Virus record (IMG/VR): IMGVR_UViG_2974574300_000001
Location: 1 to 64,000 of that record
Source: a virus
Taxonomy: Duplodnaviria; Heunggongvirae; Uroviricota; Caudoviricetes
DNA: 64,000 bases
Direction: 5' to 3' (one strand)
Both the position numbers and the translations under genes were made by a program. Below are positions 2,484 through 57,648 of the stretch, in pieces (the stretch's first letter is position 1; each line of letters starts with the position of its first letter). The notes beneath the pieces were generated by a model, which saw only the letters and a program-made list of their open reading frames with translations, had not been told where the DNA came from and did not search any database.

Positions 2484-2566
2484 AATTTACAGAAGACCGT
2501 TTACAGCAATATTTATTAAATTTTTAGCGGAAAAATTGAAAGATACGGTCTGGTAATACTAAACAT

Positions 2567-2643
2567 GGTTAGGAAGCACATAAGGTATGTGCGGTCGCCT
2601 GTTAAGCGAATGGCACAGGGTTCGAATCCCTGACTAACCGCCA
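2567..2643 (+). tRNA. tRNA-Asn (anticodon GTT)
   Basis: acceptor GGTTAGG/ACTAACC, D-stem GCAC/GTGC, anticodon loop CTGTTAA, T-arm CAGGG-TTCGAAT-CCCTG, CCA. Confidence 0.7.
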
Positions 2644-2712
2644 AATTTAGGAGAGAAGCGATTGCTCACCGATTTGTAAGGTGCAAGTCCTTAGCCTGAA
2701 TAGAAATTAAAT

Positions 2713-2800
2713 GTGTCGTTATCCCGTAGATGGTAGCGGTGGGGACTGTAAATCCCTTGTCATTGAGACTCGGTAGGTTCGACTCCTACACGGCACACCA
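2713..2800 (+). tRNA. tRNA-Tyr (anticodon GTA), long variable arm
   Basis: acceptor GTGTCGT/ACGGCAC, anticodon stem GGGGA/TCCCT loop CTGTAAA, long variable arm, T-arm GTAGG-TTCGACT-CCTAC, CCA. Confidence 0.7.
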
Positions 2801-2805
2801 ATAAA

Positions 2806-2882
2806 GGTTATGTAGTTTAATTTGGTTAAAATACTCCCTGTCACGGGAGATGATGAGGGTTCAAATCCCTTCGTAACCGCCA
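2806..2882 (+). tRNA. tRNA-Asp (anticodon GTC)
   Basis: acceptor GGTTATG/CGTAACC, canonical Asp anticodon loop CTGTCAC (weak stem), T-arm GAGGG-TTCAAAT-CCCTT, CCA. Confidence 0.6.
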
Positions 2883-3310
2883 ATTTTGAGAGGGCTATTT
2901 AGCCCCTCCCTTAAAGAGTTCTTACGAGTATTCTTTAAAGGAGCAGAAGACCAAATTCAGCAAGTTACTTAAAATTTCAAGCCAATTTAATTTTGAAAAA
3001 TTTAAAACTTGGTCTGGCTCAACAAATTTACAGAAGACCATTTACAGCAAAACTTAAACAATCTATTTCTCGGTAAAGAAAAGGAGAAGGTTCGATTCCT
3101 TCACTCGGCAGGTGTCGAGTTGGTGTAATGGTAGCACTTAAGATGATAAACAACGGTCTGGTAATTATCTTTGTAGATAAGTTATTAAGCTTACCTGTGA
3201 GTATGCGACCACAAAGGGTGAAAGGGTAAATTCTAGATTTAAACCCAAAAAGGCACATCGCTACAGACCTTAAGCAAGTCTGGGTAGCTTATCTACAAAG
3301 ATAATTTAAT

Positions 3311-3386
3311 GGAAGTGTAGCAGAATGGTGATGCGGCAGACTTTTAATCTGACAGGCGATGGGTTCGAATCCCTCCACTTCTACCA
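3311..3386 (+). tRNA. tRNA-Lys (anticodon TTT)
   Basis: acceptor GGAAGTG/CACTTCT, anticodon loop CTTTTAA, T-loop TTCGAAT, CCA. Confidence 0.65.
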
Positions 3387-3390
3387 ATAT

Positions 3391-3467
3391 GGTTCAGTCG
3401 CAGATAAGGTAATGCAAGGGTCTCATAAGCCCTATGAATGTGGGTTCGATTCCCATCTGAACCTCCA
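3391..3467 (+). tRNA. tRNA-Met or tRNA-Ile2 (anticodon CAT)
   Basis: acceptor GGTTCAG/CTGAACC, anticodon stem AGGGT/GCCCT loop CTCATAA, T-arm GTGGG-TTCGATT-CCCAT, CCA. Confidence 0.7.
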
Positions 3468-3469
3468 AT

Positions 3470-3544
3470 TGTGGGTTAGCATAAATGGTAATGCAAACGG
3501 CTGATAACCGTTAGAAGAGGGTTCGATACCCTCACCTACAACCA
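3470..3544 (+). tRNA. tRNA-Ile (anticodon GAT)
   Basis: acceptor TGTGGGT/ACCTACA, anticodon stem AACGG/CCGTT loop CTGATAA, T-arm GAGGG-TTCGATA-CCCTC, CCA. Confidence 0.7.
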
Positions 3545-3559
3545 ATTTCAATAAAGTTG

Positions 3560-3588
3560 TTGACATTGAGATGTGACTACTTTATAGT
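3560..3588 (+). promoter_or_regulatory. sigma70-like promoter (TTGACA-17-TATAGT) inside tRNA array
   Basis: TTGACA 3560-3565, 17 nt spacer, TATAGT 3583-3588. Confidence 0.6.
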
Positions 3589-3880
3589 AACTAAAATACT
3601 TCAGAATATGTATAATTCAAACACCAATACATGAGCGTTAGACGTAACACAATGTGGGGAAATTTGTTGTACATATTCTGAATAGTTTTCGTTGCGTAGC
3701 GTCTATTTTGCAAATTTAAAATAAATGCAAACGACAATGTTTTTCTGGCAGTAGCTTGATAGGCTAAACACCAGTGAGGTCTTCCAATCCCTCATCAAAG
3801 AATTTGGCGTACTAGCCACGGTATGATTAATAAGGTGGGCATCTTTAAGGGCTTTCTAAGAGAGTCTTTAAAGATAATTA

Positions 3881-3962
3881 CGGGGCGTATCTCAGCGGTC
3901 TTCTAAACCGCCGTTAACCGAGTAAGTGGAGTATGCGGGTTCGAGTCCTGCCGCCTCGACCA
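3881..3962 (+). tRNA. non-canonical tRNA-like gene (anticodon-like hairpin with TCT, no clear D-arm)
   Basis: acceptor CGGGGCG/CGCCTCG, T-arm GCGGG-TTCGAGT-CCTGC, CCA; only a 5 bp/7 nt hairpin GCGGT-CTTCTAA-ACCGC placed where the D-arm should be, followed by 23 nt extra region. Confidence 0.45.
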
Positions 3963-4104
3963 ATTAGTTAGCAGATTACTTAGACGACCTAAGCGGGTCT
4001 TCCTGTAGGGAGGTGGTCTGTATCTCATGTTTTCCAGAACATGTAAATAATCTGAGAAGGGGCTTTACAGTGTTGAGATAATACGGTAAGCTTCGAATTA
4101 TAGT

Positions 4105-4187
4105 ATGGGACGATGTTAAGACTCTAAGGCATGAGCAACGGCTTCCAACACCGTTTCAAAGGGGTTCAACTCCTCCGTCCCATGCCA
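4105..4187 (+). tRNA. non-canonical tRNA-like gene (aberrant D region; anticodon uncertain, possibly CCA)
   Basis: perfect 7 bp acceptor ATGGGAC/GTCCCAT, T-loop TTCAACT, CCA; 26 nt between acceptor and candidate anticodon hairpin ACGGC-TTCCAAC-ACCGT. Confidence 0.45.
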
Positions 4188-4200
4188 AAGTCTTATTAGG

Positions 4201-4288
4201 GGTAGGTAGCGGCTAATGGTAGCCAAACTGTCTTGAAAACAGTTGCCACTGTAGAGATACGGTGAGGGTTCGACTCCTTTACTTACCG
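4201..4288 (+). tRNA. tRNA-Ser (anticodon TGA), type II
   Basis: acceptor GGTAGGT/ACTTACC, 3 bp D-stem, anticodon stem ACTGT/ACAGT loop CTTGAAA, long variable arm, T-loop TTCGACT; CCA not fully encoded. Confidence 0.7.
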
Positions 4289-4545
4289 CCTAATAAGATT
4301 TAAAGCCAAGCTTCATTCGGATGTTGCTTTGGTATCCCTCGTGTATTGTCGTACACACTGATAAAACACCTAGTAGGTGTCACGGAGAAGAGATAATATC
4401 AAGCTCTCCAAAGGTTCTAGTCACCGGATTAAACAAGACTATGCAAAGACCTTTTTAGGTCTTTTTAGAGGGCTTCTAAGGTTATTACAGCTTGTTGTGG
4501 AACCTTGTTGCTTAGGTTCTTAGAAGTTCTCTAAAAAGATTTAAT

Positions 4546-4623
4546 GGGAGATTGACGGTAATTGGTAAACCTACCTCGCTTAGAACGAGGTGTTTGAGGG
4601 TTCGAATCCCTTGTCTCCTACCA
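4546..4623 (+). tRNA. tRNA with anticodon TAG (Leu by anticodon) but short variable arm
   Basis: acceptor GGGAGAT/GTCTCCT, anticodon stem CCTCG/CGAGG loop CTTAGAA, 5 nt variable loop, T-arm GAGGG-TTCGAAT-CCCTT, CCA. Confidence 0.6.
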
Positions 4624-4630
4624 AATTAAT

Positions 4631-4706
4631 GCAGGTGTAGCAAAATGGTTATGCGGCTGACTCTTAATCAGTAAGACGATGGGTTCAATTCCCTCCACCT
4701 GTACCA
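4631..4706 (+). tRNA. tRNA-Lys (anticodon CTT)
   Basis: acceptor GCAGGTG/CACCTGT, anticodon loop CTCTTAA, T-loop TTCAATT, CCA; paralog of 3311-3386. Confidence 0.6.
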
Positions 4707-4712
4707 AACATT

Positions 4713-4788
4713 GGGGATGTAGTTTACATGGTTAAAACATAAGTTTTGCAAACTTGGGAACTGAGTTCAATTCTCAGTGACTCCACCA
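4713..4788 (+). tRNA. tRNA-Ala (anticodon TGC)
   Basis: G3:U70 in acceptor, anticodon stem TAAGT/ACTTG loop TTTGCAA, T-arm CTGAG-TTCAATT-CTCAG, CCA. Confidence 0.6.
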
Positions 4789-4794
4789 ATTAGT

Positions 4795-4869
4795 GCATCC
4801 ATAGTTTAAACGGGAAAATTACAGTCTTCCAAACTGAGGTTGAGGGTTCGATTCCCTCTGGATGCTCCA
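4795..4869 (+). tRNA. tRNA-Trp (anticodon CCA)
   Basis: acceptor GCATCCA/TGGATGC, anticodon loop CTTCCAA, T-arm GAGGG-TTCGATT-CCCTC, CCA. Confidence 0.7.
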
Positions 4870-4875
4870 AACAAT

Positions 4876-4952
4876 GCTGCTTTCGTATAATTGGCTATTA
4901 CACATCCCTTGTAAGGATGGAAATGCAGGTTCGAGTCCTGTGAGCAGCACCA
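4876..4952 (+). tRNA. tRNA-Thr (anticodon TGT)
   Basis: acceptor GCTGCTT/GAGCAGC, anticodon stem CATCC/GGATG loop CTTGTAA, T-arm GCAGG-TTCGAGT-CCTGT, CCA. Confidence 0.7.
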
Positions 4953-5047
4953 ATTCAGAGGTCAAGTGAAAGACCGCTGGTGTCAACTGAAGACCGTAAC
5001 AAATTCCACGGAGTTGAGTTAGCGGCACAACTTCAGACCTCTTTCAC

Positions 5048-5122
5048 ACTCGCTTAGTTTATATGGTAAAACATCACCCTTACAAGATGAAGAAAAAGGT
5101 TCAAGTCCTTTAGTGAGTACCA
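5048..5122 (+). tRNA. tRNA-Val (anticodon TAC)
   Basis: acceptor ACTCGCT/AGTGAGT, D-stem GTTT/AAAC, anticodon loop CTTACAA, T-arm AAAGG-TTCAAGT-CCTTT, CCA. Confidence 0.65.
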
Positions 5123-5123
5123 T

Positions 5124-5202
5124 GTTCCAGTATCCCAATTGGCAGAGAGGCCAGACTTAAAATCTGTGTTATGTATCGGTTCGAATCCGATATGGAGTAC
5201 CA
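5124..5202 (+). tRNA. tRNA with anticodon TAA (Leu by anticodon), short variable arm
   Basis: acceptor GTTCCAG/ATGGAGT (6 of 7 pairs), anticodon stem CCAGA/TCTGT loop CTTAAAA, T-arm ATCGG-TTCGAAT-CCGAT, CCA. Confidence 0.5.
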
Positions 5203-5207
5203 ATTTT

Positions 5208-5283
5208 AGCGGTATAGCATAACTGGCAATGCAGCAGTCTCTGAAGCTGTCCTATTAAGGTTCAAATCCTTATGCCGCTGCCA
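5208..5283 (+). tRNA. tRNA-Gln (anticodon CTG)
   Basis: acceptor AGCGGTA/TGCCGCT, anticodon loop CTCTGAA, T-arm TAAGG-TTCAAAT-CCTTA, CCA. Confidence 0.6.
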
Positions 5284-5314
5284 CTTCTAAGGGTTCTTAC
5301 GAGAGTCCTTAAAT

Positions 5315-5390
5315 GTGGCCTTATCATAAACGGTAATGACCCATGCTGTGAACATGGTCTATACGGGTTCAAATCCCGTAGGTCACCCCA
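5315..5390 (+). tRNA. tRNA-His (anticodon GTG)
   Basis: acceptor GTGGCCT/AGGTCAC, discriminator C, anticodon stem CCATG/CATGG loop CTGTGAA, T-arm ACGGG-TTCAAAT-CCCGT, CCA. Confidence 0.7.
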
Positions 5391-5396
5391 ATTTAT

Positions 5397-5472
5397 AGTC
5401 CAAGTAGCTTATATGGTTAAAGCGCGTGTCTGAAAAACATGAGAAGAGGGTTCAAATCCCACTGGACTACCA
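5397..5472 (+). tRNA. tRNA-Phe (anticodon GAA)
   Basis: D-stem GCTT/AAGC, anticodon stem CGTGT/ACATG loop CTGAAAA, T-loop TTCAAAT, CCA. Confidence 0.65.
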
Positions 5473-5489
5473 ATTTTCAAAGGTGCTTA

Positions 5490-6224
5490 ATGAAAGAGAT
5501 GACAGGACAAGGTAAGGAGATTTTTAATCTCTTAAAAACCGGTAAAGGGTTTTCTAACCCACTTATTACTGGTGCAGTAGTTCTCGGTGGAACCGTAGCT
5601 GCCTCTACATCACTTGTAAGCTCTATTAGCTCTGTAACAGACCCTACAATGAAGGAGAAGCTTGTTGCTGCTGGACTCACAACAGTCCTTCTAAACAGCT
5701 TTACAACAAGCCTGACAAGCACTACAGCAACTACTAAGACCCTAACAGACTATGGTCAAAAGTCTATTGATGAGTTTTCATCACGTATGCAGGTAGCAAA
5801 GGGGTATTCCAATGTTATGGGTGCAGCAGGAGAACAAGTTGGTTGTACACCATTTAGTGGTATTATGGGTGTTGCTACAGAGTATGGTCAGCAAGCTATT
5901 GACACGATTAACAGCACACTAGACAGTGTTAACGGTGTGTTAAGTGACTTACAAGACGCTATTGATAAGGGTCTTGATACTGTTTCTGATTTAGCTAACC
6001 AAGCTGTTAGCAAGATTAATGAAGGTATCTCAAAGATTACAGCTTATGCAGATGAAGTTGTGCAGATGATTGAAGAAGAAGCTGCCCTTATTGCAGAGTA
6101 CCTTAAAACGAATATCAATGGGTTCTTAGCAGGTATCTTACCAGACTGGTTTGATGATGCTTGGAAAACTGGTGTAATCGACACTATTGCAACACCAGAA
6201 ATGAAGAACGCATTACAGAAATAA
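5490..6224 (+). CDS. hypothetical protein (Ser/Thr-rich N-terminal half)
   Basis: ORF track 5439-6224 trimmed to first ATG after tRNA-Phe; AGGTG RBS. Confidence 0.5.
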   Translation: MKEMTGQGKEIFNLLKTGKGFSNPLITGAVVLGGTVAASTSLVSSISSVTDPTMKEKLVAAGLTTVLLNSFTTSLTSTTATTKTLTDYGQKSIDEFSSRMQVAKGYSNVMGAAGEQVGCTPFSGIMGVATEYGQQAIDTINSTLDSVNGVLSDLQDAIDKGLDTVSDLANQAVSKINEGISKITAYADEVVQMIEEEAALIAEYLKTNINGFLAGILPDWFDDAWKTGVIDTIATPEMKNALQK

Positions 6225-6225
6225 T

Positions 6226-6318
6226 GGAAGATTAACCCTAAAAGGTAAGGGAGCAGTTTGCTAAACTGCCAGTAGCTGAGAAATCGGTGTACCAGTTCAA
6301 GTCTGGTATCTTCCTCCA
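6226..6318 (+). tRNA. tRNA-Ser (anticodon GCT), type II
   Basis: perfect acceptor GGAAGAT/ATCTTCC, 3 bp D-stem CCC/GGG, anticodon stem GCAGT/ACTGC loop TTGCTAA, long variable arm, T-arm ACCAG-TTCAAGT-CTGGT, CCA. Confidence 0.75.
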
Positions 6319-6322
6319 ATCT

Positions 6323-6398
6323 GAATCCGTGACAGAAATGGATATGTGCCTGTCTGCAAAACAGGTTTATAAGGGTTCAAGTCCCTTCGGATTCTCCA
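6323..6398 (+). tRNA. tRNA-Cys (anticodon GCA)
   Basis: acceptor GAATCCG/CGGATTC, anticodon stem CCTGT/ACAGG loop CTGCAAA, T-arm AAGGG-TTCAAGT-CCCTT, CCA. Confidence 0.75.
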
Positions 6399-36500: not shown

Positions 36501-37016
36501 TCAACTTAGTTTTGCAAACTCTCCGTGGAGTTTAATAGCAGCTTCACAGTAAGCTTTATGGGCTTCTTCTTCCGTTGTGTATGTTCCTATATGTATAGTC
36601 TTGCCATTATGGTTAATCTGGGCTATCCACTTACCAGACTTGCTTCTACTTGTACCTTTTAAGTTTTTTGATGTTCTGGGTTGTCTCCTATTAGACATGT
36701 TCTGCTCTTTTGTGGCCTCTCTTAGATTGTCCCAAGCGTTATTCAAACCATCTCCATCTTTGTGGTCAATGTGTTTATCAGGCCACTTACCTGTCATCCA
36801 GAACCAAGCAATTCGGTGATTACCTGTCCTGTATCCTAAAATCTGTGTGTGCATATACACACCAGACCTTGTGCGCTTAATTGCTCCGGCTTGGCTTCCA
36901 ATGACCACCCTACTACTATGTGGAGGTCTCCCAATCCATGTTAAGACCCCTGTTTCGGGGTCATAATCTAACCAAGACTTTAACTGTTCATGTGTGAATC
37001 CACAATCTCTCATCAA
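36501..37016 (-). CDS. HNH homing endonuclease with AP2-like DNA-binding domain
   Basis: HIDHKDGDGLNNAWDNLREAT HNH motif and C-terminal GKWIAQI...GTYTTEEEAHKAY AP2-like domain; paralogs at 47411 and 60835. Confidence 0.75.
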   Translation of the reverse strand: MMRDCGFTHEQLKSWLDYDPETGVLTWIGRPPHSSRVVIGSQAGAIKRTRSGVYMHTQILGYRTGNHRIAWFWMTGKWPDKHIDHKDGDGLNNAWDNLREATKEQNMSNRRQPRTSKNLKGTSRSKSGKWIAQINHNGKTIHIGTYTTEEEAHKAYCEAAIKLHGEFAKLS

Positions 37017-37567
37017 TGTACCTCATACCAGCTCTTACCAACTTTACCAGTACCAGTTACAAGCGTTTCCTCCTTAAGACCTAAGTTTCTTGATGCCTGA
37101 CCATACATCCAGTCAATTACTGCTTTAACATCCTGTGTCATCTCTTCTGGGCACTCCCAACTATTCTCGTCGTGGTATGCTAAAAGCAATCTAGCACCAA
37201 TAGCTGGTTTTCGACCATTCAGCTTTGTAAGACCCTCTTCACAAGCCCTTCTACAAGCAAGGTTGATAGCTTCATTCTGAACCTGACTTTCCGAACCCAT
37301 GAGCAAGTAATTTAAAAGTTTGTGCGGAGATTTACACCACAACCATGCACCTGCTACCTTTACAAAACCACCCTTAGAGATTGCAGCAGTCTTACCAAAC
37401 ACCTCTTCAAGAGCCTTCTTAGTGGCTTTGAAGTCTGCTTCCAAATTATCTATCAACTTTTTAATCTTAGGAAGGCGTACAAAGTAAGTTTGCTTAGTTA
37501 AAGCACCCTCTTCAGTAGTTGCAGCTTTAATCGTCTTAGCAAACTTCTCGTCACCTGCCCCAAACAA
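37013..37567 (-). CDS. DNA polymerase (family A, T7-like), 3' exon
   Basis: begins with FGAGDEK continuing motif B; contains motif C LLAYHDE. Confidence 0.8.
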   Translation of the reverse strand: MFGAGDEKFAKTIKAATTEEGALTKQTYFVRLPKIKKLIDNLEADFKATKKALEEVFGKTAAISKGGFVKVAGAWLWCKSPHKLLNYLLMGSESQVQNEAINLACRRACEEGLTKLNGRKPAIGARLLLAYHDENSWECPEEMTQDVKAVIDWMYGQASRNLGLKEETLVTGTGKVGKSWYEVH

Positions 37568-37569
37568 TA

Positions 37570-38370
37570 CATCTGGTCAATACACTCGCAAGGTGTACCA
37601 GTTCTCTTATGAACTTCTCCGCATTTCTACGGAGTGTCGGACTATATCACGTAGCAGTGCTGCTACCGTTGCGCTTGGGATGGTCATTAGCTTACCACCC
37701 TACTCTACTCAGTTCATACGTTAAGTATGCTTTTCGATAGTCTCTGAACGTTTCTCTGTTAGGAATCTCTATAATCATGTTATTTACTCAGGTAGTCAAT
37801 TGCCCTTTGCATATTATCAACGCTATCTGCAAGCAACCCCAAAGCTCTATTGCAATTGTGGCACAACATACCTCTTACTTTTCCGGTTTTGTGGTCATGG
37901 TCAACGACAAGTTTAGCCTTATGCCGTGAGCTATTCATGATAAAACCTTCACCGCCACAAATTTGACATTTGTAATCACAGTTACGAAGTAGGGTTTCAA
38001 CCTCTTCTCTTTCTAAACCATATGTTCTCAGGTAGTAATTCTTAACTCTACCTTTCTCTCCGCAATGCGAAGAACAATAAACTTGCCTTGCTGTTCTAGG
38101 CATGAACACCTTCTCACAGCTAGGACATTTCTTAGTAAGAACCCTATGTTCTGCTCTTCTGTCAAATTTTAATACGCAACTTCTGCACCGTTTTTGATTG
38201 TATTGGTATGGTTTAAACTCTGCACCACACTCAGTACACAATCTCTCTTTGTAACCTGCCATTGTCTCTCTCCTTTGTTTTAGGAGTCCTAACAGAGACT
38301 TCGCTGCTGATTACCATGTCTTTACAGACTTAGGCTTCCAGCAATTCACAACGTTTTACATGCGCCACTG
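37570..38370 (-). mobile_element. group I intron (putative) in DNA polymerase gene
   Basis: about 800 nt separating polymerase motif B halves (IYA.. | ..FGAGDEK); boundaries compatible with exon ending in U and intron ending in G; carries HNH ORF. Confidence 0.6.
37780..38262 (-). CDS. intron-encoded HNH endonuclease (endonuclease VII-like with zinc ribbon)
   Basis: DHDHKTGKVRGMLCHNCNRALG HNH/EndoVII signature plus CxxC pairs. Confidence 0.75.
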   Translation of the reverse strand: MAGYKERLCTECGAEFKPYQYNQKRCRSCVLKFDRRAEHRVLTKKCPSCEKVFMPRTARQVYCSSHCGEKGRVKNYYLRTYGLEREEVETLLRNCDYKCQICGGEGFIMNSSRHKAKLVVDHDHKTGKVRGMLCHNCNRALGLLADSVDNMQRAIDYLSK

Positions 38371-40513
38371 ACGCATAAATACCATTCTTGGCTTTCTTAC
38401 GACCCTTACTAATTTCTTGAAGAAGGTTTGTATCCTGAGTAGCTCGACAAGTCAAGATATCTTCCTCTTTATTAAGGCTGAAGTAGATACTATTTAAAGT
38501 ATGTGCATCAGTTCCTGAGTACACCACGTACAAGTCATTTTCCGAATCATAATGCAAATACTTGTCAATCTCTGGGTTTAGATACTGGTCAAAATGTTTA
38601 CAATAGTATCTACCATCCTCTTGTTTGACAAACTCAACCTCTTCTTTACCCTCTGTCACTGCTTTGGTGAACTCTTTATCACCCATAAAGTTACACAGCA
38701 GTACAAGTTGCGCGCTATTCATATCTGCTGAAACAATATTAGTCCCTTCTTCACAAGTCCACACCTCCCGCATAGGTGCTCCATAGACAGCAGCACCAGA
38801 TGGTACGTTTACAATACCATATTGTGTCATACGCCCAGTTGAAGTACCAAACACCATTGCACCAGCACTAAGGCGACCATCAGGACGAATCTGGTTCAAC
38901 CAACCTTTTTCATCATCCTTTGAGTTCTCAATAGTTCTGCGTCTGTGCATCAAAGTATAGTATTTAGCAATCTTCTGTCCAAGCTCACCTTCAATCGTAT
39001 CATAAGATGATTCAGTAAGTTTTGGCGAAGTACGGATTAAGCAAGGCTCAAGCAAATCTGTGTACTTCTTCACAGACCAGTTATGCTCAATGTACTGGAC
39101 ACCTTCATGTTCAACATAACTCAAACCACACCGCTCAACCATTTCCTGCCACTTAGGATGTTTTGTAATCATCTTTTTATTGTCTTTGAAACGACAAACT
39201 TTGACAGGACGACCATCTGAGTCTTTCTTGTAGTTCCAGTCATCTGGAATCCAACCAACTGATTTCAAGTAGTCTTTAACAACTGCTACCTGAGTCATAC
39301 GAGAAACTTCGAACTCAATTGGTGTATATGGTGCATCAATCAAACCTGTGTAGCGACTTGACTCAAGTTCAAAGTGGTTAACGACGTGGCTGTTATAGTA
39401 CTTCACAGTTTTGACTGTTTTTACTGGTTTCCAGTCTTTGCATTTCTTACCAATCTTTGCGTTCAACTCATTGCAAATTGCACGAGCATCCTTCATTGCT
39501 ACAAAGCCTTCCTTGTACTCTTCACCAGTTACAGTGTTGGTTGGTGTATAGCAATTTCTCTTTTCAATGTTAAAAATCTTTGTAGTTGGCTTACCAAATG
39601 GCTTGATTTCATAAGTTTGCATCTCACCGTTACGTACCTGCTGACGATACTTTGTTTTAGGGTACTTGGTAATTCTCTTCAGTCCATCTGCATGACCAAA
39701 TGTTTCAACATACTCATTCCAAGCTTTTGCAAACTCTTCTCCAGTGACTTTACCTTTGGTCTTAATAGTTGGAGGAAGATGTGGTTCAACCTCTGAAGCA
39801 AGCTCATTAGTCAACTTGTCAAGTTCCTTCACATGGAACTCCATAAGCTCTTTATCAGCTTTCCAACCATTGATAGCTTGTTGACTCATCCAGAAAGATG
39901 TTTCTTTAGCTCGCATGTAGGTTTCATAAGTGTCTATGCCACACTTCTTAAGCTTGAGATACTCATTATCAAGTGCCCGTTTAGTTTTGGCGTTAATACG
40001 GATATCTTCTACAACACGAGTGAAGATTTCTGCATTCCACACACCCCAATGCTCAATCTCTGGTTTACGAACACCAACACGAGCACCCCATGCAGCCAAA
40101 CCATGAGCACCTTTATAACCCTTTGGAGTTGGTCTATCCATCCACTGAACACGAGACTGGATAAGAGAATCCTGAAAGAAATTACTCCACGGCTTACATT
40201 TTGGATTATCAAAGTTCCATAAATCCGGTGCAATGTGATTGAAGACCCACCAGTCATAACCGAGGCCGTTATGGATACAAAGTCGTTTTGCCTTTAACGC
40301 AAACTCAACACCTTCACGTAAACCACCCTTAATGTACTTAGTGTACTTGTGACCGAGGATAGGCTCATCTGTAAAGACCCATACAGGTGGCTCTTCATCG
40401 TCAGATTTATAGTCTGCAAAGGCCATTACGTGAACTTTAGTGAACTCAAGGAGTAAACCATCAGTTTCTGTATCACCAACCAAATGTAAGTTTTTAAAAT
40501 CTACGTTTTCCAT
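38330..40513 (-). CDS. DNA polymerase (family A, T7-like), 5' exon with 3'-5' exonuclease domain
   Basis: exo motif GDTETDG, HNGLGYDW, and motif B start RKKAKNGIYA at the ORF end; reading frame continues into intron to stop at 38330. Confidence 0.85.
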   Translation of the reverse strand: MENVDFKNLHLVGDTETDGLLLEFTKVHVMAFADYKSDDEEPPVWVFTDEPILGHKYTKYIKGGLREGVEFALKAKRLCIHNGLGYDWWVFNHIAPDLWNFDNPKCKPWSNFFQDSLIQSRVQWMDRPTPKGYKGAHGLAAWGARVGVRKPEIEHWGVWNAEIFTRVVEDIRINAKTKRALDNEYLKLKKCGIDTYETYMRAKETSFWMSQQAINGWKADKELMEFHVKELDKLTNELASEVEPHLPPTIKTKGKVTGEEFAKAWNEYVETFGHADGLKRITKYPKTKYRQQVRNGEMQTYEIKPFGKPTTKIFNIEKRNCYTPTNTVTGEEYKEGFVAMKDARAICNELNAKIGKKCKDWKPVKTVKTVKYYNSHVVNHFELESSRYTGLIDAPYTPIEFEVSRMTQVAVVKDYLKSVGWIPDDWNYKKDSDGRPVKVCRFKDNKKMITKHPKWQEMVERCGLSYVEHEGVQYIEHNWSVKKYTDLLEPCLIRTSPKLTESSYDTIEGELGQKIAKYYTLMHRRRTIENSKDDEKGWLNQIRPDGRLSAGAMVFGTSTGRMTQYGIVNVPSGAAVYGAPMREVWTCEEGTNIVSADMNSAQLVLLCNFMGDKEFTKAVTEGKEEVEFVKQEDGRYYCKHFDQYLNPEIDKYLHYDSENDLYVVYSGTDAHTLNSIYFSLNKEEDILTCRATQDTNLLQEISKGRKKAKNGIYASVAHVKRCELLEA

Positions 40514-40709
40514 TTTTACTCCCTCTAAAATCATTAACCCCATACATTACTGCAAAAAATTATAAAAAGCAAGTTGACAATACACTTGACAAGGTGTTAA
40601 TCTTTGCGAAGTGGGTTTTTACTTAAAAGGTTACTTAACAGTTTAACTATACAGATACTTTAAAACTCTTAAAAGATTATTTAATAGCTTTTAAAAAGCT
40701 TTAAAGTAT

Positions 40710-47433: not shown

Positions 47434-47910
47434 AGAATACCTACACTATGACCCGAAACAGGGGTCTTTACTTGGTTAGTTGATAGAAAAGGTAAGGCCA
47501 AAGCTGGCTCAGTAGCAGGTTTTAAACACCATAGCGGTTATATCTATATAAAACTCTTCGGAAAAAGATATGCAGCACACAGGCTGGCATTCTTGTATAT
47601 GAAAGGATACCTCCCAAAATTTGTTGACCACAAGAATTGTATCAGATACGACAACTGGTTCGACAATTTGAGAGAGTGTAGCAGGTCAGACAACAACTGT
47701 AATGCAGTCAAAAGAAGAGATAATAAGTCTGGTGTGAAGGGTGTATATTACCACAAGCAAAGAGGTAGATGGGCTGCACAAGTTAAGCATAATAAAGTTT
47801 GCTACCATCTAGGTCTATTTGACTCTGTTGCTGAGGCTGAAGAAGTTGTCAAAAAGAAAAGAGAAGAACTTCATAGAGAGTTTACAAATCACGGAGAAGC
47901 TCATGAATGA
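47411..47910 (+). pseudogene. HNH-AP2 homing endonuclease gene disrupted by frameshift
   Basis: frame A MLTQQTLKEYLHYD then frame B PETGVFTWLVDRKGK...VDHKNCIRYDNWFDNLRE...GVKGVYY; junction at C-run GACCCG near 47450. Confidence 0.55.
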
Positions 47911-48407
47911 TTAAAGTTAAAGGTTTTGGGAGTTGTCCAACTTATGGACATTGGATTTCACTATGTGGTGAAGTTGACCCAGCAAAGCACTTTGGTTTTG
48001 TCTACCTAGTGTACTGCAAAAAGACTGGACAGTACTATTTGGGTAAAAAACAGCTTAACAGTGTGACCAAAAGAAAAGTTGCTGGTAAGACTCGGAAGAA
48101 GATAGTCACTAAGGAAAGTGATTGGATGACTTATGAGACTTCTTCTGAGTATATCAAAAAAGATATTGAAAGTTTTGGAAAAGAATTTTTTGACTTTTAC
48201 ATTATCCAAACCTACTACACAAAAGGTGGTCTAGTTTATGGTGAAGCAAACCTTCAACATAAGTTCGATGTAATGACAAAAAGGATTGACTCGAAGCTCA
48301 GACTCTTCTACAATGCCAATATTGCAGCAATTAAGTTTATTACCAAAGAAACTTATGAAGATGCTGAAAAAAGAATCCATAAGGTAATGAAAGTAAATTG
48401 TGCTTGA
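47907..48407 (+). CDS. GIY-YIG endonuclease-like protein
   Basis: FGFVYLVYCKKTGQYYLGKK resembles GIY-(10)-YIG motif. Confidence 0.45.
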   Translation: MIKVKGFGSCPTYGHWISLCGEVDPAKHFGFVYLVYCKKTGQYYLGKKQLNSVTKRKVAGKTRKKIVTKESDWMTYETSSEYIKKDIESFGKEFFDFYIIQTYYTKGGLVYGEANLQHKFDVMTKRIDSKLRLFYNANIAAIKFITKETYEDAEKRIHKVMKVNCA

Positions 48408-50089: not shown

Positions 50090-52324
50090 ATGATTAAGAC
50101 AATTAAAAAATCAAACGGTACAGTAGTAAGCTTTGACCCAGAAAGACTGAATAAGTGGGCATCATGGGCAGATAAGCGTGGAATTATCTGGTCAGAAGTC
50201 ACTATGGAAGCCATGAAACGTGTCTATGAGGGTTGCACTACAAAAGAGATGCACCAAGCCATGATTGATGTTTGTGTTGATAAACAAACTCAAGAGTACT
50301 CAGATATGGCTGGACGGCTGCTTTTGGGTATTATCTACAAAGAAGCCTTTGGAGGCTTTACTAAGGTTCCTACGCTGGTTACCTTCGTTAAAAATATGGA
50401 GAGAGCAGGACTTTGGGAGAAGATGGATTATTCACAGGAAGAGCTTGAATACCTGCAAGGTTACATCGTACACTCAAAAGATATCTCTTACGGTTATGCA
50501 GTCTTGAAACAGTTCAGAGACAAGTATGGTATCCGTGATATTAAAACGGGAAGACTTTTTGAGTCACCACAATTTATGTTTATGGGTATGGCTATGAAAG
50601 CCTTTGAGAAGCAACCAAAGCACCGTAGACTGCAAGATGTTATCAAGCTGTACACTTACCTATCTGACCTGAAGATTAACGCTCCTACGCCTTATTTAAA
50701 TGGTTTAAGAGCAACTAAATCAGGTTATGCGTCATGCTGTTTGATTAAGGCAAATGATACTGCTGAGTCTCTCGGTATTGCTGCAAAGGTTGCTTATGAT
50801 ATGACCACAAAGCAAGCTGGTATTGGGATGCTGATGGAGACTCGCACTATTGGTGATGGTATCCGTCAAAATACGATTGAGCACATGGGTAAGCTACCTT
50901 ATTACAAGCTTGTACGTTCATCTGTAGAGGCAAACAAACAGAAGAGTCGTGGTGGTTCAGCTAATAACTTCTACACTGCTCTAGACCCGCAGATTGAAGA
51001 TTTACTGCGTTTGAAGCACCCTACAACGGTTCCTTCTAAACGTATTAATGAGATGGACTACTCATTCGGCACAAACGATTATTTCTGGCAGTGTGTTCAG
51101 TATGATACAGATTGGTTGCTATTCTCTTACAAAGATGCACCAAAACTCTATGACATGTTCTACACAGCATCTGCTGATGAGTTTGCTATGGCAGTTGGTC
51201 ACGCAGTACATTCAGGAGTTAAGCACAGACGAGTAAAGGCTCGTGAAATTGCTAAGCTGTTTATTCAACAGCGTTATGCTACAGGTCGTGTGTATCCATT
51301 CTTCACAAATAATGCGAACACACATACACCATTTAAAGAACCATTGAAGATGTCAAATCTTTGTATGGAAATTGTGTTGCCAGTGTATGGTTTTGAGAAA
51401 GAGACAGACCTTTACAGAGACGATGCTGTGAAAGAGGATGGTGAGGTGGCTCTTTGCTTCCTAGCTAGTTTGGTTGCAGGGAGAATTTCAGAAGATGAAT
51501 ACGCTGACGTTGCTTATTATGCTCTTGCAATGGTTGACTCCGTTATTGACCTTATGGATTATCCGTATCCGTCGATGCGTAACCATGTTCAGAAGCGTCG
51601 TTCTGTTGGGATTGGCCTTACAAATGTGGCTCATTACCTTGCGAAGAACTACGTGAACTACTCTTCACGAGCAGGTAAAACAAAACTTCATGAACTGGCA
51701 GAGATGCACTCTTACTATCTGCATGAAGCCTCTCTGAGACTTGCTAAAGAGCGTGGCGTTCCAGAGTACATGAAGTTCACTAAGTATCCTGAAGGCTGGG
51801 TTCCTCCAAAGACAGCTAACAAGAAGATTGATGAAAAGCATGATGCAAAACTACGATATGATTGGGATGACTTAGCACAACGTATCAAAGAAAATGGTGG
51901 AATCCGAAACTCTGTATTAGAAGCTTACATGCCTAATGAGAGTTCTTCACTAGCAACTAATACGACAAATGGCTTGTACCCAATTCGTGACTTTATTTTA
52001 ACTAAAAAATCTGCAACTGGTAACGTACTATTTATTGTTCCAGATTATGAAGAGTTGAAGTATGTCTATGAGATTGCTTGGGATATTGACACCTTTGATA
52101 TGATTGATTGTTATGCAATTGTTCAAAAGTTCACTGGTCAAGCTATCTCTTCAGACTTCTATGTTGACTATGCAAAGTCTAAGAAGGTATCATTGGCTCA
52201 AGCTTTGAAGTACATGATTTATGCCAACTCGGTAGGTATGAAAACCATGTACTACCTTAACAGTCGCATTGGTGTAGGTAAATCTGCACTGCAAGATGCT
52301 TATTGCGAGGGTTGCGGTGTTTAG
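50090..52324 (+). CDS. nrdA: ribonucleotide reductase class I large subunit
   Basis: 744 aa, active-site region SNLCMEIVLP and catalytic cysteines. Confidence 0.85.
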   Translation: MIKTIKKSNGTVVSFDPERLNKWASWADKRGIIWSEVTMEAMKRVYEGCTTKEMHQAMIDVCVDKQTQEYSDMAGRLLLGIIYKEAFGGFTKVPTLVTFVKNMERAGLWEKMDYSQEELEYLQGYIVHSKDISYGYAVLKQFRDKYGIRDIKTGRLFESPQFMFMGMAMKAFEKQPKHRRLQDVIKLYTYLSDLKINAPTPYLNGLRATKSGYASCCLIKANDTAESLGIAAKVAYDMTTKQAGIGMLMETRTIGDGIRQNTIEHMGKLPYYKLVRSSVEANKQKSRGGSANNFYTALDPQIEDLLRLKHPTTVPSKRINEMDYSFGTNDYFWQCVQYDTDWLLFSYKDAPKLYDMFYTASADEFAMAVGHAVHSGVKHRRVKAREIAKLFIQQRYATGRVYPFFTNNANTHTPFKEPLKMSNLCMEIVLPVYGFEKETDLYRDDAVKEDGEVALCFLASLVAGRISEDEYADVAYYALAMVDSVIDLMDYPYPSMRNHVQKRRSVGIGLTNVAHYLAKNYVNYSSRAGKTKLHELAEMHSYYLHEASLRLAKERGVPEYMKFTKYPEGWVPPKTANKKIDEKHDAKLRYDWDDLAQRIKENGGIRNSVLEAYMPNESSSLATNTTNGLYPIRDFILTKKSATGNVLFIVPDYEELKYVYEIAWDIDTFDMIDCYAIVQKFTGQAISSDFYVDYAKSKKVSLAQALKYMIYANSVGMKTMYYLNSRIGVGKSALQDAYCEGCGV

Positions 52325-52379
52325 TTTTAACAACTATGAGGGTCGTAAAAGACCCTCTAAAAATAACTTTGGAGAGACC

Positions 52380-52637
52380 ATGAAAGATTTAATAGAAAAA
52401 CATGAGCGACCAATATACTTGCTCCACAAGCCTCGGAAAACGATGTACTATGTGGGTAGCACAGACATGATGATAAAGCAAAATGATGACTCATGGGTTG
52501 CTGGTATCTCTTACATCTCTACAGCAGATGGTAAAATTTATGCAAGACCTTATGAGATGTTTAACAAAGAAAATTGGGAAGTTTTAGACAGAAAACAAGC
52601 CTTAGAAATGATAAAGAAAGGAGAAATCACACTATGA
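52380..52637 (+). CDS. hypothetical protein
   Basis: ORF between nrdA and nrdB. Confidence 0.4.
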   Translation: MKDLIEKHERPIYLLHKPRKTMYYVGSTDMMIKQNDDSWVAGISYISTADGKIYARPYEMFNKENWEVLDRKQALEMIKKGEITL

Positions 52638-53707
52638 TTAACCAGCACCCAATCTTTTTAGGTGGTGAGAGAAAAACTTTTGACTCACTTAATAAACACT
52701 ACCCAAAAATCTTTGAGCTTTATAAACAACAAAAAGCACAAGATTGGTCAGAAGATGAGTTCCCTTTTGAACAATCACGTCTTGATTTTGAGAGTGTCCC
52801 AGCATCAATGTCAGGTGTAATGCTTGAGATTCTTAAGTGGCAATGGGAAGCAGACACTCAAGTTGCTAAGAGCTTGGCATTTGCCTTTGCACCCTTTATC
52901 TCTGATGACATCTATGCAACTGCAATTATGAAGCAGTCTGAGATTGAAAACCTACATGCTCTTACTTACTCAGAGATTGTAAGACAATGTATTAAAAACC
53001 CTGAAACAATCTTAGATGAGATTAACCAGAATGTTGCTGTGCAAGACCGATTAAAAACTGTGAATCGTGTTCTTGAAGAATTACTGGATGAAGGGATAAA
53101 CTACCGACTGAGTTATGTCCGTGATTCACTTCTGGACAAAGACCCTTTACACTTCCATAAAGTTATTCTGAAAGGTCTGTTTGCAGTGACTGCACTTGAA
53201 GGTATATCTTTTATGGCATCCTTTGCATGTACCTTTGCACTTGATGCTCAAGATAAATTTCAGGGTATTGCTCAAGCTGTCCAGAAAATTATGCTTGATG
53301 AAATCCTTCACACTAAAATTGATATTGAAGTTTTAAAAGAAACTTTAAGAGATGATGAGTGGCAGAAAGCTTTTCAACAAATTCTTCCAGAGATTAAAGT
53401 AATCTTAGATGAAGTAGTTGAAAGTGAAGAAAAATGGTCGTATTATATCTTCTCCGAAGGACGTGCTGTAGTAGGCTTAAATACAAAGCTTCTTCATGAG
53501 TGGGTTTACTATAATGCTGCCCCACTGTATGATATGTTTGGCATTCAAAGAGATTTTGTAGCTCCTAAAGAACCACCTTTGAAGTATATGATTAAGAAGA
53601 TGGAAATTGATAAAGAGCAGAATGCTAATCAGGAGCAACAGAACGGTGCGTACCTATTGAATACTGTTGTAGATGATTTGAATAGTGGATTTTTAGAGGT
53701 TCCTTAA
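52634..53707 (+). CDS. nrdB: ribonucleotide reductase class I small subunit
   Basis: di-iron ligand-like E/H motifs, position after nrdA. Confidence 0.8.
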   Translation: MINQHPIFLGGERKTFDSLNKHYPKIFELYKQQKAQDWSEDEFPFEQSRLDFESVPASMSGVMLEILKWQWEADTQVAKSLAFAFAPFISDDIYATAIMKQSEIENLHALTYSEIVRQCIKNPETILDEINQNVAVQDRLKTVNRVLEELLDEGINYRLSYVRDSLLDKDPLHFHKVILKGLFAVTALEGISFMASFACTFALDAQDKFQGIAQAVQKIMLDEILHTKIDIEVLKETLRDDEWQKAFQQILPEIKVILDEVVESEEKWSYYIFSEGRAVVGLNTKLLHEWVYYNAAPLYDMFGIQRDFVAPKEPPLKYMIKKMEIDKEQNANQEQQNGAYLLNTVVDDLNSGFLEVP

Positions 53708-54196: not shown

Positions 54197-55393
54197 ATGA
54201 ACAAAGTACAGATTATTAAAAAGAATGGCTCACTCGAAGAACCTGATATCAAAAAAGTTTTAGCAGCAGTCACAAAGTCAGCTAACAGAGTTGGTTATAA
54301 AGAGCTTCCACCAGATGTTACTCAAGCTCTTGAGTCAGCATTTATGAGGATTCTGGTAAAGTCCACTAAGCAGAATAATTTACTCATTTCAGTAAATGAT
54401 ATTCACAGTATTGTTGAGGGTGCTTTGGCAGAAGTCAATCACGAGATTTATGAGTCTTACTCAACATATAGAAATTACCGTAAAGAAGTTGCTCAGAATT
54501 GGGATGAACTCTACCAGAAGACCAAAGATACACTCTTCTTAGGTGACCGAGAAAACGCTAATTTTGACAGCAGTTTAATTTCTACAAAAGGTTCAATTAT
54601 TCGTGGTTATCTGACTAAAGAAATCTTTAAACAGTACCATTTAACACCAGAGGAACTTGAAGCCATTGAAAAAGGGTTTATCTATATCCATGATTTAAGA
54701 GACCTAATTTTTGGTGGTATCAACTGTTGCCTGTTTGACATTGGTAAAGTCCTGAAAGGTGGCTTTGAAATGTCTGGCATTGAATATTGTGAACCGAAGT
54801 CTGTACTGTCAGCCTTACAGGTTATTGGTGACGTAGTTCTTTCAGCAACTGCACAGCAATTTGGTGGCTTTACTTTAGCAGAGATTGATAAGGTACTTGT
54901 GCCGTATGCTAAGAAGTCTCTACGCTATCATGCTGAGAAAGCAACAGCTTATGGTATTCCTAAAGAACATTACCACAACTATGTCATGGAGCAGCTACAG
55001 ATTGAATTAACTCAAGGTTTTCAGTCTCTTGAAATGAAACTAAATACTGTACCTTGTAGCCGTGGTGATTTTGCATTCACAACTTTGACATTCGGGTTGC
55101 TTGACTCAGATATGTCTAATGAAGATAACCGACTGCAATACATGATTGCGAGCACTCTCCTAGATGTTCGTATGAATGGACAAGGTAAGAGCAAGAAGCC
55201 TGTTGTATTCCCTAAATTGGTTTATATTTATGACCAGAAGAGACACAATGAGAATATCTGTCAAGGCCACCTGTACAGTAAAGCTATTGAGTGTTGCTCT
55301 AAAGCTATGTATCCAGATTTCTTAAGTGTATCTGGACATGGTGCTGTAGCAGAGGCTTTTGAGCGTTCTGGCAAGGTAATTTCCCCGATGGGT
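54197..55393 (+). CDS. nrdD: anaerobic ribonucleotide reductase (class III), 5' exon
   Basis: ORF ends ...VISPMG then stop inside intron; downstream exon continues CRAFLSPY. Confidence 0.8.
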
Positions 55394-56135
55394 TAACAGG
55401 CTCTATAGCTCATCTAAAACGTGCCTAAACAGGGAAACTCTACAGATGTAGACAATCCTGTGCTAAATGATGTACGATGTAAGAAACTATACAACATAGG
55501 AGTCTTACATGCCAAACTATCACGTCACTGAAGATGGAAAAGTCTTTAGGGAAAATGGTGTAGAGCTTACGCAGTGGAAATCCAACACTGGGTATATGAA
55601 AGTGAGGTTTTACGGTAAGAAGAATCGTGACATGTATGTCCACAGGTTAGTTGCTGAGAAATATGTACCTAACCCAAATAATCTTCCAATTGTAAAACAT
55701 AAGGACGATAACAAACTAAATAACCACGCATCTAACTTAGAATGGGGTACTCATTCTGAGAATGCTAAAGAAGGTTATGAGAACGGATGCTACAAGTTCC
55801 ACAAGCGTTCATATGCCGTGAAAGCCACACACAAAGTGACAAAGGAAGTTATTGTTGCTAAGTCAATACGAGAGTTATCCAATATACTTGGACACAATCG
55901 CAAGACCATCTCTTCAATATTGAAGGGTGTAAAAGAGCATAATAACTTCGAATATGAGTTTGAATACATCTAAATGCCGAACGACTAACCGTGATGAATG
56001 TAGCGGTGTAGGGTCAAGCGACTCGAAATGGTACGCTACTTAGAAATAAGTAGAAGATATAGTCTGGACTTACTGGCGACAGTAAGCAGCTTGAATAAAG
56101 CGGGGTAAGCTTAGCGAACTTACCTGAACAACAAG
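55394..56135 (+). mobile_element. group I intron in nrdD
   Basis: exon ends with T, intron ends with G, in-frame join PMG|CRAFL; 5' core CTAAACAGGGAAACTCTACAGATGTAGACAATCCTGTGCTAAAT is, as best I recall, close to the T4 td intron core. Confidence 0.7.
55509..55973 (+). CDS. intron-encoded HNH homing endonuclease
   Basis: HKDDNKLNNHASNLEWGTHSEN HNH motif; located inside nrdD intron. Confidence 0.7.
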   Translation: MPNYHVTEDGKVFRENGVELTQWKSNTGYMKVRFYGKKNRDMYVHRLVAEKYVPNPNNLPIVKHKDDNKLNNHASNLEWGTHSENAKEGYENGCYKFHKRSYAVKATHKVTKEVIVAKSIRELSNILGHNRKTISSILKGVKEHNNFEYEFEYI

Positions 56136-57083
56136 TGTAGAGCATTTTTATCACCATACCATAACGAATATGGTGAAGAGTTTTATGTAGGTCGTGCTAA
56201 CATTGGTGCTGTATCTTTGAACTTACCAATGATTTACCAGTATTCTAAAGAGAATGGCTTAGATTTCTGGAAAGAGCTTGATAAGTACCTAGAAATGATT
56301 CGCAGCTTCCACAAGAAACGTTACGAAATGATTGCTAATATGCCAGCAAGTTCTAACCCTCTTGCATTCACACAAGGTGGTCTGTACAAAGGGAATAAGA
56401 AACCTACTGACAAGGTTGGCTGGGATATCGTGAAGTCCTTCACAGCTTCTTTTGGGGTTACTGCGCTTGATGAGCTAGATGTTCTTGCTGAAGGTAAACG
56501 ACTTCATGAAGTTGGAAGCTGTAGTTTTGCATATGATGTTCTGGAATATATCAACATGAAGACTGAAGAGTTTAAAAATGAAGATGGCTTCTTATATGCA
56601 GTCTATGGCACTCCAGCAGAATCACTTTGTGGAACTCAGCTAAAACAGTTCAGAGATATGTTTGGCGTTATCAAAGGCGTTTCTGACAAGGAATACTTTA
56701 CAAACAGCTTCCATATGAATGTTGCAGCCGACATTACACCATTTGAGAAGCAGGACTTAGAAGAACCCTTCTTCCATATCTGTAGAGGCGGCAGAATCCA
56801 GTATGTAAGAGTGGCTAATCCAGAAAACTTACCAGCACTTAAGAGTTGTATTACAAGAGGGATGTTGAAAGGTTTCTATCAGGGACTTAACTTTGACTTA
56901 GCAATCTGTGAGCATTGTGGCAACAGACCAAAGGCTGATGTTGAAGAATGTGAGGTTTGTCATTCACACGATATCTCTGTGATTAACAGGGTGTGCGGGT
57001 ACTTGTCATTCACAAAAATTAAAGGTCAGTCTCGAATGAATGACGCTAAGATGGCAGAAATTAAGGATAGGGTTTCTATGTAG
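56136..57083 (+). CDS. nrdD: anaerobic ribonucleotide reductase (class III), 3' exon
   Basis: C-terminal zinc ribbon CEHCG..CEVC and glycyl-radical motif RVCGYLS. Confidence 0.8.
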   Translation, partial: CRAFLSPYHNEYGEEFYVGRANIGAVSLNLPMIYQYSKENGLDFWKELDKYLEMIRSFHKKRYEMIANMPASSNPLAFTQGGLYKGNKKPTDKVGWDIVKSFTASFGVTALDELDVLAEGKRLHEVGSCSFAYDVLEYINMKTEEFKNEDGFLYAVYGTPAESLCGTQLKQFRDMFGVIKGVSDKEYFTNSFHMNVAADITPFEKQDLEEPFFHICRGGRIQYVRVANPENLPALKSCITRGMLKGFYQGLNFDLAICEHCGNRPKADVEECEVCHSHDISVINRVCGYLSFTKIKGQSRMNDAKMAEIKDRVSM

Positions 57084-57090
57084 AATACAA

Positions 57091-57648
57091 ATGAATTACG
57101 AACTAATATATAATGCAATTATTAAGAAGGCACATTCTGAAAGGGGTGTGCCTCTTACATACTACAAATGTCAAGGTAAGGGTTATGAAAGACACCATAT
57201 CATACCAGTGTGTCTAGGTGGCGATAAAATTAGTGGAGATAATATTGCTTTACTTACACCTAGAGAGCATTATGTAGCTCATAAATTACTGGTTAAGATG
57301 TATCCAAACAATCATAAGTTATGGTTTGCATGGAACAGGTTAGCTCATGATGGCCTAGATAGGAAAATATCATCCAGAGACTATGAAAAGGTAAGGGCTT
57401 TGAACTCGAAAGCTTCATCCATTGTGAATAAAGGTAGGGTTTTCACTGAAGAACATCGAAGACGATTAGGAGAATCTCAAATAGGTAATACAAAATCAAA
57501 AGGTTGTAAAAGGTCTATAGAAACAAGGAAGAGGATGTCAGAAGCCGGAAAAAAGCCAAAGAAAAAGAAAACTTGCCATCATTGTGGTATGACTGGTGGT
57601 GCTGGTAACATGACTCGATATCATTTTGACAATTGTAAGAAAAAATAA
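57091..57648 (+). CDS. HNH endonuclease with NUMOD3-like repeats
   Basis: ERHHIIPVCLGGDKISGDNIALLTPREHYVAH HNH motif; C-terminal basic repeats and CHHCG zinc finger. Confidence 0.55.
   Translation: MNYELIYNAIIKKAHSERGVPLTYYKCQGKGYERHHIIPVCLGGDKISGDNIALLTPREHYVAHKLLVKMYPNNHKLWFAWNRLAHDGLDRKISSRDYEKVRALNSKASSIVNKGRVFTEEHRRRLGESQIGNTKSKGCKRSIETRKRMSEAGKKPKKKKTCHHCGMTGGAGNMTRYHFDNCKKK

Follow-up and report, generated by a model that had tools for sequence, protein, structure and literature searches.

The nrdD gene of a Felix O1-like Salmonella phage is interrupted by an insert that, as judged from its sequence and predicted fold, is most probably a group I intron (IA2 type, as in T-even phages) that is mobile and self-splicing and carries the gene for an HNH homing endonuclease; we place the probability of this reading at about 0.88. 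In the folded intron, a single guide would pair with both exons, forming P1 with the final 7 nt of exon 1 (U·G at the splice site) and P10 with the initial 8 nt of exon 2, and guanosine-initiated splicing would join the exons to give the mRNA for a 714-residue NrdD. In mixed infections, the I-HmuI-like HNH protein would cut or nick copies of nrdD that lack the intron, close to the site of insertion and probably on the side of exon 2, and repair from the intron-bearing genome would copy the intron together with ~54 nt of the flanking exon 2. Group I introns that carry a homing endonuclease are ordinary mobile elements in phages, and the present one is typical of them; it is no new kind of element.

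Previous reports on Felix-like phages mention a 'split nrdD' that is interrupted by a homing endonuclease (PMC4837284), frequent endonuclease insertions (PMC3728262) and 'two introns' recognized in a scan for noncoding RNAs (PMC9951933). In the open-access literature we found no description of the structure, function, site or relatives of the nrdD intron, although one may exist elsewhere.

The insertion site in nrdD

The window (the entire 64,000-nt stretch of viral DNA that was analyzed) is from a Felix O1-like Salmonella phage. In the nrdD region, its sequence is 99.4% identical to those of VSe11 and Mushroom, both Felix O1-like Salmonella phages; its intron is 100% identical to that of Salmonella phage SBA-1781 and is also identical to that of Mushroom. 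The order of the genes around the intron is that found in Felix O1 (nrdA, nrdB, glutaredoxin, a small membrane protein, nrdD and nrdG). Elsewhere in the window, 21 tRNA genes are clustered on the + strand (positions 2154–6395), as expected in Felix O1-like phages.

The initial annotation placed the end of the nrdD reading frame after VISPMG (55393) and its in-frame resumption at 56136 with CRAFLSPY; both the list of open reading frames and the Pfam NRDD profile agree with this, with profile positions 1–250 located in exon 1 and positions 264–560 in exon 2, that is, the exons encode consecutive parts of the same protein. The open reading frame that contains exon 1 (54197–55396) is terminated by a TAA with which the insert begins. 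When the exons are joined, the 714-residue product aligns end to end with the solved structures of NrdD and is unbroken through the PMGCRSFL motif; the polypeptide encoded by exon 1 is 97–98% identical to the corresponding part of the NrdD from Felix O1.

The junction, GGT|TG(C/T), was located by alignment with the continuous nrdD from Felix O1. A one-base ambiguity is present (T on both sides); the shifted version yields the same spliced product and an intron that ends in T. We prefer 55394–56135 as the boundaries because the exonic U that precedes the intron and the terminal G fit the rules for group I introns; these are also the boundaries first proposed, with an insert of 742 nt preceded by an exonic T (55393) and ending in G (56135).

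The insertion is located at the Gly|Cys boundary of the conserved PMG|CR motif (the features are collected in Table 1). The Gly and Cys align with G289 and C290, respectively, of the NrdD from T4; the sequence of the latter was rebuilt from the genome, with the expected 1033-nt intron and 605-residue protein, and the Cys of its PMGCRSF motif is residue 290. From structural and mutational work, we take C290 to be the catalytic thiyl-radical cysteine; the Felix-type intron is therefore positioned exactly before the codon for the catalytic Cys.

Table 1. Positions of the nrdD exons, the intron and its structural elements, and other genes for endonucleases in the window.
Feature	Position	Strand	Description
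nrdD exon 1	54197–55393	+	399 codons; ATP-cone (Pfam ATP-cone) and N-terminal part of NrdD; ends with ...VISPMG
Group I intron, subgroup IA2 type	55394–56135	+	742 nt; phase 0; between the codons for Gly399 and Cys400
P1	55387–55414	+	exon GAUGGGU (55387–55393) pairs with guide GCUCAUC (55408–55414); 7/7 pairs
P10, guide strand	55400–55407	+	GCUCUAUA pairs with the first 8 nt of exon 2 (UGUAGAGC, 56136–56143); 8/8 pairs
P3, 5' strand	55420–55425	+	CGUGCC; partner GGUACG (56030–56035)
P4-P5-P4'	55429–55461	+	P4, 55429–55434/55456–55461; P5, 55439–55443/55448–55452; from Rfam alignment, covariation and MFE fold
P6 and P6a, 5' strands	55462–55474	+	GC, then GAUGUA; partners 55965–55970 and 55976–55977
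Hairpin at ribosome binding site	55477–55510	+	covers part of the Shine-Dalgarno sequence (AGGAG, 55498–55502) and the AT of the ATG start codon
Intron ORF	55509–55973	+	154 residues; I-HmuI-like HNH homing endonuclease (putative)
3' core	55983–56064	+	P7, 55983–55987/56060–56064; P7.1, 55988–56007; P7.2, 56011–56024; P3', 56030–56035; P8, 56036–56053; J8/7 AAGAUA, 56054–56059
Intron 3' end	56069–56135	+	P9, 56069–56086 (GCGA loop); P9.1, 56089–56101; P9.2, 56104–56124
Intron 3' tail	within 56069–56135	+	GAACAACAAG, then terminal G (56135)
nrdD exon 2	56136–57083	+	first codon Cys (CRAFLSPY...); glycyl-radical domain (Pfam Gly_radical)
Intron-linked tract in exon 2	56136–56189	+	54 nt; ~10 mostly synonymous substitutions; 11 alleles compared
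Free-standing HNH/NUMOD3 endonuclease gene	57085–57648	+	between nrdD and nrdG
HNH_3+AP2 endonuclease gene	36501–37016	-	directly after the polymerase gene
Split family-A DNA polymerase gene	37013–40543	-	N-terminal part, 38330–40543; C-terminal part, 37013–37567
Endonuclease_7-type ORF	37780–38262	-	in the gap between the polymerase parts
Short HNH_3+AP2 ORF	47593–47910	+	looks truncated
SegE-type GIY-YIG gene	47907–48407	+	adjoins the short HNH_3+AP2 ORF

Structure of the intron RNA

The insert contains the elements that characterize a group I intron, that is, a U·G pair in P1, a terminal omega G together with P10, helices P3 through P8, the P3/P7 pseudoknot and J8/7. The wobble pair at the 5' splice site is U55393·G55408. 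All seven pairs of P1 are also found in the introns inserted at the same site in other phages (vide infra) and in the T4-like nrdD intron; the outermost pair shows a compensatory change. The P10 strand of the guide directly adjoins the P1 strand, and the T at position +3 of exon 2 (TGT, not TGC) completes P10. P3 retains six of six pairs in all eight introns that were compared; it has seven different sequences in these, with five of the six pairs changed on both sides. In the same eight introns, P7 (GACUA/UAGUC) and the J8/7-P7 motif GAUAUAGUC are invariant. P6a is re-formed with other sequences in the F96, Vequintavirus, Phapecoctavirus and td introns. The presence of P7.1/P7.2 between P7 and P3' and of P9.1/P9.2 at the 3' end marks subgroup IA2, the type found in T-even phages; in the window intron, P7.1, P7.2, P9.1 and P9.2 are found in the MFE or centroid fold together with covariation. 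P2 is absent, as it is from the nrdD intron of T4.

For the analysis of covariation we used eight introns: those from the window, T4 td, a T4-like nrdD, an Aeromonas phage terminase gene, a Vibrio phage polymerase gene and three nrdD genes with an intron at the same site. Across these, the 57 core pairs are paired in 94.5% of the cases, vs ~38% when the partners are slid (33–40% for slides of 1–3 columns); in 33 pairs both partners are changed, and no shuffle out of 500 attained any of the observed measures. P1, P10 and P6a were excluded from the formal count because MAFFT loses their register between introns with and without P2. Without guidance, the MFE fold of the ORF-less form of the intron (a natural allele, vide infra) contains P3–P6a, P7.1, P7.2, P8, P9 and P9.2 (z −2.92); P9.1 is present in the centroid fold only.

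When the entire window was searched with Rfam at the gathering threshold, only tRNAs were matched, that is, Intron_gpI (RF00028) was not; with a relaxed threshold, two pieces of RF00028 flank the ORF (33.1 and 15.6 bits; E 1.8e-06). The gathering score of this model is 50 bits, and the match in the window, which falls below it, is divided by the 465-nt ORF. Such a score is normal for an ORF-bearing intron because the T4 td intron with its ORF, our control, scores only 40.3 bits. The ORF-less allele from Salmonella phage MBP4696116, which is 99.4% identical to the matching parts of the Mushroom/window intron, exceeds the threshold (53.3 vs 50 bits; E 7.8e-13). The resemblance of the core to those of T4 group I introns, noted in the initial annotation, is thus above chance by the E-values from Rfam and by the shuffles in the analysis of covariation.

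The intron-encoded HNH protein

That the insert encodes an HNH endonuclease was proposed initially and is confirmed by a match to Pfam HNH_3 (E 1.3e-10; 41.2 bits vs a cut-off of 24.8); the ORF also matches PHROG 59 (E 2.7e-42) and, over residues 3–151 of 154, the structure of I-HmuI (PDB 1U3E; E 4.1e-09), with which it shares the two-domain layout. I-HmuI is the intron-encoded HNH nickase of phage SPO1; the two proteins are similar in that both are HNH_3-type products of intron ORFs that align over their whole length, but they differ in the host gene, in the host phages and in the residue at the position of Asp74 in I-HmuI. Within the HNH motif, His64 and Asn align with their counterparts in I-HmuI; however, Asp74 in I-HmuI aligns with Lys63. 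In I-HmuI, Asp74 is a ligand for the metal ion; with Lys in this position, nuclease activity cannot be asserted from the sequence alone.

The ORF, which begins with an ATG behind a Shine-Dalgarno sequence of its own, occupies the loop of P6a; the 3' strand of this helix is made up of the final codons and the stop codon of the ORF. Among the alleles from Felix-like phages, in which the nucleotide divergence is ≤10%, we find 30–39 synonymous and 7–9 non-synonymous differences; the resulting dN/dS of ~0.06 shows that the HNH protein is maintained by purifying selection. The hairpin that covers the ribosome binding site is not distinct from shuffled sequence (−11.4 kcal/mol, z −1.49); it is also present in the fold of the whole ORF-less intron. 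Comparable hairpins cover the translation starts of intron ORFs in T4 (PMC2988022), and the hairpin in the window resembles these, as a weak analogy. A scan for promoters and terminators identified 9 promoter-like sites vs 10.6 expected, with none above chance near the ORF.

Relatives of the intron

The core of the intron was initially described as similar to that of the T4 td intron. The assignment to the T4 type stands: the stretch quoted as evidence is P4-P5-P4' (55429–55461), which aligns with the P3-P4-P5-P6 region of td and matches it closely, and which is closer still to the T4 nrdD intron. However, td is not the nearest relative in T4; the nrdD (sunY) intron is closer, with 80% identity in the 5' half vs 70% for td. 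With this correction, and apart from the remark about a second RNR-associated intron (vide infra), the analysis supports the initial interpretation as sound.

The window intron and the T4 nrdD (sunY) intron, which encodes I-TevII, share the host gene, an IA2-type core, the absence of P2, the guide GCUCAU and an almost identical P7.1. They differ in site, with the T4 intron located in codon 180 (AYE|YEV), ~110 codons upstream in the T4 numbering, and in the ORF, which in T4 encodes a GIY-YIG enzyme and is located in the 3' P9 region, whereas the HNH ORF in the window is located in P6. The T4 td intron, which encodes I-TevI, shares with the window intron the IA2 core with P7.1/P7.2 and P9.1/P9.2 as well as an ORF looped from P6a; the 3' halves are 71–72% identical, and the quoted P3–P6 stretch is nearly the same. 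The td intron differs in its host gene (thymidylate synthase), in the presence of P2 and in its GIY-YIG endonuclease.

Homologous introns with an HNH ORF are inserted at the same MG|CR site in Krischvirus JSE, a Vequintavirus (the 'Campylobacter phage A13b' record), Phapecoctavirus nieznany and Vibrio phage F96. All four are similar to the window intron in lacking P2, in the guide GCUCAU and in having the HNH ORF in P6a. The cores of the same-site introns are 66–80% identical (with the 5' part of the Phapecoctavirus intron left out), the intron ends are 71–80% identical and the HNH proteins are 40–54% identical, while the NrdDs encoded by their host genes are only ~29–34% identical to that encoded by the window (JSE not included); this distribution points to horizontal transfer into a conserved target. 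In the records and the open-access literature that we searched, the introns in these four groups are neither annotated as introns nor described as such. Introns in the nrdE of Twort (I-TwoI) and the nrdB of T4 (I-TevIII) are HNH group I introns located beside conserved functional residues of ribonucleotide reductase (PMC3653736); the likeness to the window intron is by description, and those host genes encode class I reductases.

Several other features of these records are evident. Krischvirus JSE is related to T4. The nrdD of Vibrio phage F96 has a further, upstream interruption (225–1383) that contains a second, larger HNH gene (327–1256), and its exon 2 has an apparent in-frame stop in the tblastn alignment. 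Several unverified 'Campylobacter phage' records (MG065677 etc.) are either Vequintavirus or 96–99% identical to Felix-like coliphages; their host labels look doubtful.

A broader reading, which we offer as tentative and regard as less probable than not, is that an unnamed and widely travelling intron/HNH unit targets the boundary that precedes the catalytic Cys in at least five unrelated phage groups, together with two proposals about its history and action. In the first, the window intron and the T4 nrdD intron, despite sites that are ~110 codons apart, may have a recent common ancestor; the two share the guide sequence, the absence of P2 and the 5' exon end AUGRGU. The intron may have jumped between the two sites in nrdD, by reverse splicing or illegitimate homing, and then gained a different endonuclease. 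In the second, the intron-linked tract in exon 2 (vide infra) may confer immunity to an I-HmuI-like nickase whose recognition is confined to exon 2; if so, the element would act in the competition between co-infecting Felix-like phages and would not be a simple parasite.

Alleles and evidence for homing

We identified 228 phage records that contain the exon-1 segment; the intron is present in 92, and 59 of the latter have the full ORF. In Felix-like phages, three forms are found: intronless, intron with the ORF and intron without the ORF. The ORF-less alleles (MBP4696116, 1501–1816, and ~30 other records) have in common one recurrent in-frame deletion of 426 nt that leaves a 12-codon remnant (MPNNFEYEFGYI) in an intron of 316 nt; a different, shorter variant of 292 nt is found in one phage, vB_SAg-RPN213.

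The 11 alleles that were compared also differ in exon 2: a tract of substitutions (Table 1) accompanies the intron, with or without the ORF, and is absent from the intronless alleles of Felix O1, wV8 and AYO145A (and mostly absent from SUSP2). In these alleles, no intron-linked tract is found in exon 1, and the sequences converge beyond position +54 in exon 2. Such a tract is the expected signature of co-conversion and, to the extent that it can be read from the alleles, indicates homing; alternatively, the tract could be a variant of exon 2 that keeps the endonuclease from attacking the phage that encodes it. Enzymes of the I-HmuI type place their nick in exon 2; I-HmuI and I-HmuII also cut intron-containing DNA (PMC3428280); by analogy, nicking in exon 2 fits a one-sided tract.

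Homing is, therefore, an interpretation supported by the presence/absence polymorphism in near-identical phages, by the tract in exon 2 and by the purifying selection on the ORF. The initial annotation suggested active homing for a different reason, namely a second RNR-associated intron in the window; this was mistaken, with the other intron in the window located in the DNA polymerase gene (vide infra).

We consider it unlikely that the intron splices while the HNH protein no longer drives homing (the protein being inactive, or serving to aid splicing or exclude other phages), with the intron spread by ordinary recombination and descent. The Lys at the position of Asp74 in I-HmuI agrees with this possibility, as does the lack of the ORF in approximately one third of the intron-bearing records by way of one in-frame deletion; also, the tract in exon 2 could be explained by the shared ancestry of the intron-bearing alleles instead of co-conversion. 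However, the low dN/dS at ≤10% nucleotide divergence shows that the protein is under selection, the His and Asn of the HNH motif are present, and descent cannot account for the presence of the unit at one site in five phage groups that are only distantly related.

The alleles constitute a natural series (intronless, with the endonuclease, and with the endonuclease deleted) to which the same-site relatives in four other phage groups can be added; this series is usable for studying the life cycle of homing introns, co-conversion and the recognition of targets by HNH nickases.

Splicing versus a split gene

It is very improbable that nrdD is split without splicing, that is, that an endonuclease cassette divides the gene and the two parts, each translated on its own, come together as a working enzyme. 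Such an arrangement reportedly occurs in Aeromonas phage Aeh1, in which nrdA is split by mobE and the pieces assemble into active enzyme. The GenBank records do list two nrdD fragments and an HNH gene, not a spliced gene, with the second fragment beginning at an internal TTG (56217), and the term 'split gene' is used in the literature (PMC4837284). However, the product initiated at this TTG would lack 27 conserved residues, the catalytic Cys among them, and the junction has neither a start codon nor a ribosome binding site. In addition, the insert contains all of a group I core, supported by covariation, as well as P1, P10 and the terminal G, and the 316-nt RNA core is intact in the ORF-less alleles. 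A split gene of the Aeh1 nrdA/mobE type was rejected, given the group I core and the fact that the only downstream start omits the catalytic Cys.

It is just as improbable that the intron is a dead relic within an nrdD pseudogene: aerobic growth in the laboratory does not require NrdD, so the formation of plaques alone is no proof that nrdD is expressed intact, but both exons are open and encode a protein 98% identical to the uninterrupted NrdD of Felix O1, all of the core helices are intact, and the intron RNA is 95–100% conserved over ~90 records. An intein was also rejected; the first three bases of the insert are a stop codon, and the HNH ORF is in another frame, with its own signals for the initiation of translation.

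The assignment of a spliced intron would correct the annotation of ~90 public Felix O1-like genomes, several of them from candidate biocontrol phages; as annotated, the second nrdD fragment omits the catalytic cysteine.

Other introns and endonuclease genes in the window

The genes for the class I reductase provide no second RNR-associated intron: nrdA (50090–52324) and nrdB (52574–53707) are uninterrupted and have no intron-like match in Rfam. The ORF between these (113 residues, 52296–52637) has no match in Pfam; it is a conserved gene in Felix-like phages. Apart from the nrdD intron, the window has a single intron-like match, within the DNA polymerase gene (near 37568–38329, minus strand), where the gap between the two parts of the gene contains the J8/7-P7 motif GUGAUAUAGUCC and a sub-threshold match to Intron_gpI (26.2 bits). 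In related phages, three classes are again found at this location (with the ORF, without the ORF and intronless). The intron in the polymerase gene is the real second intron in the window.

The protein encoded by the free-standing HNH/NUMOD3 gene is 29% identical to MobC from T4 (E 9e-14), the gene for which likewise lies between nrdD and nrdG in the T4 genome. At this location, Felix O1 has other small ORFs.
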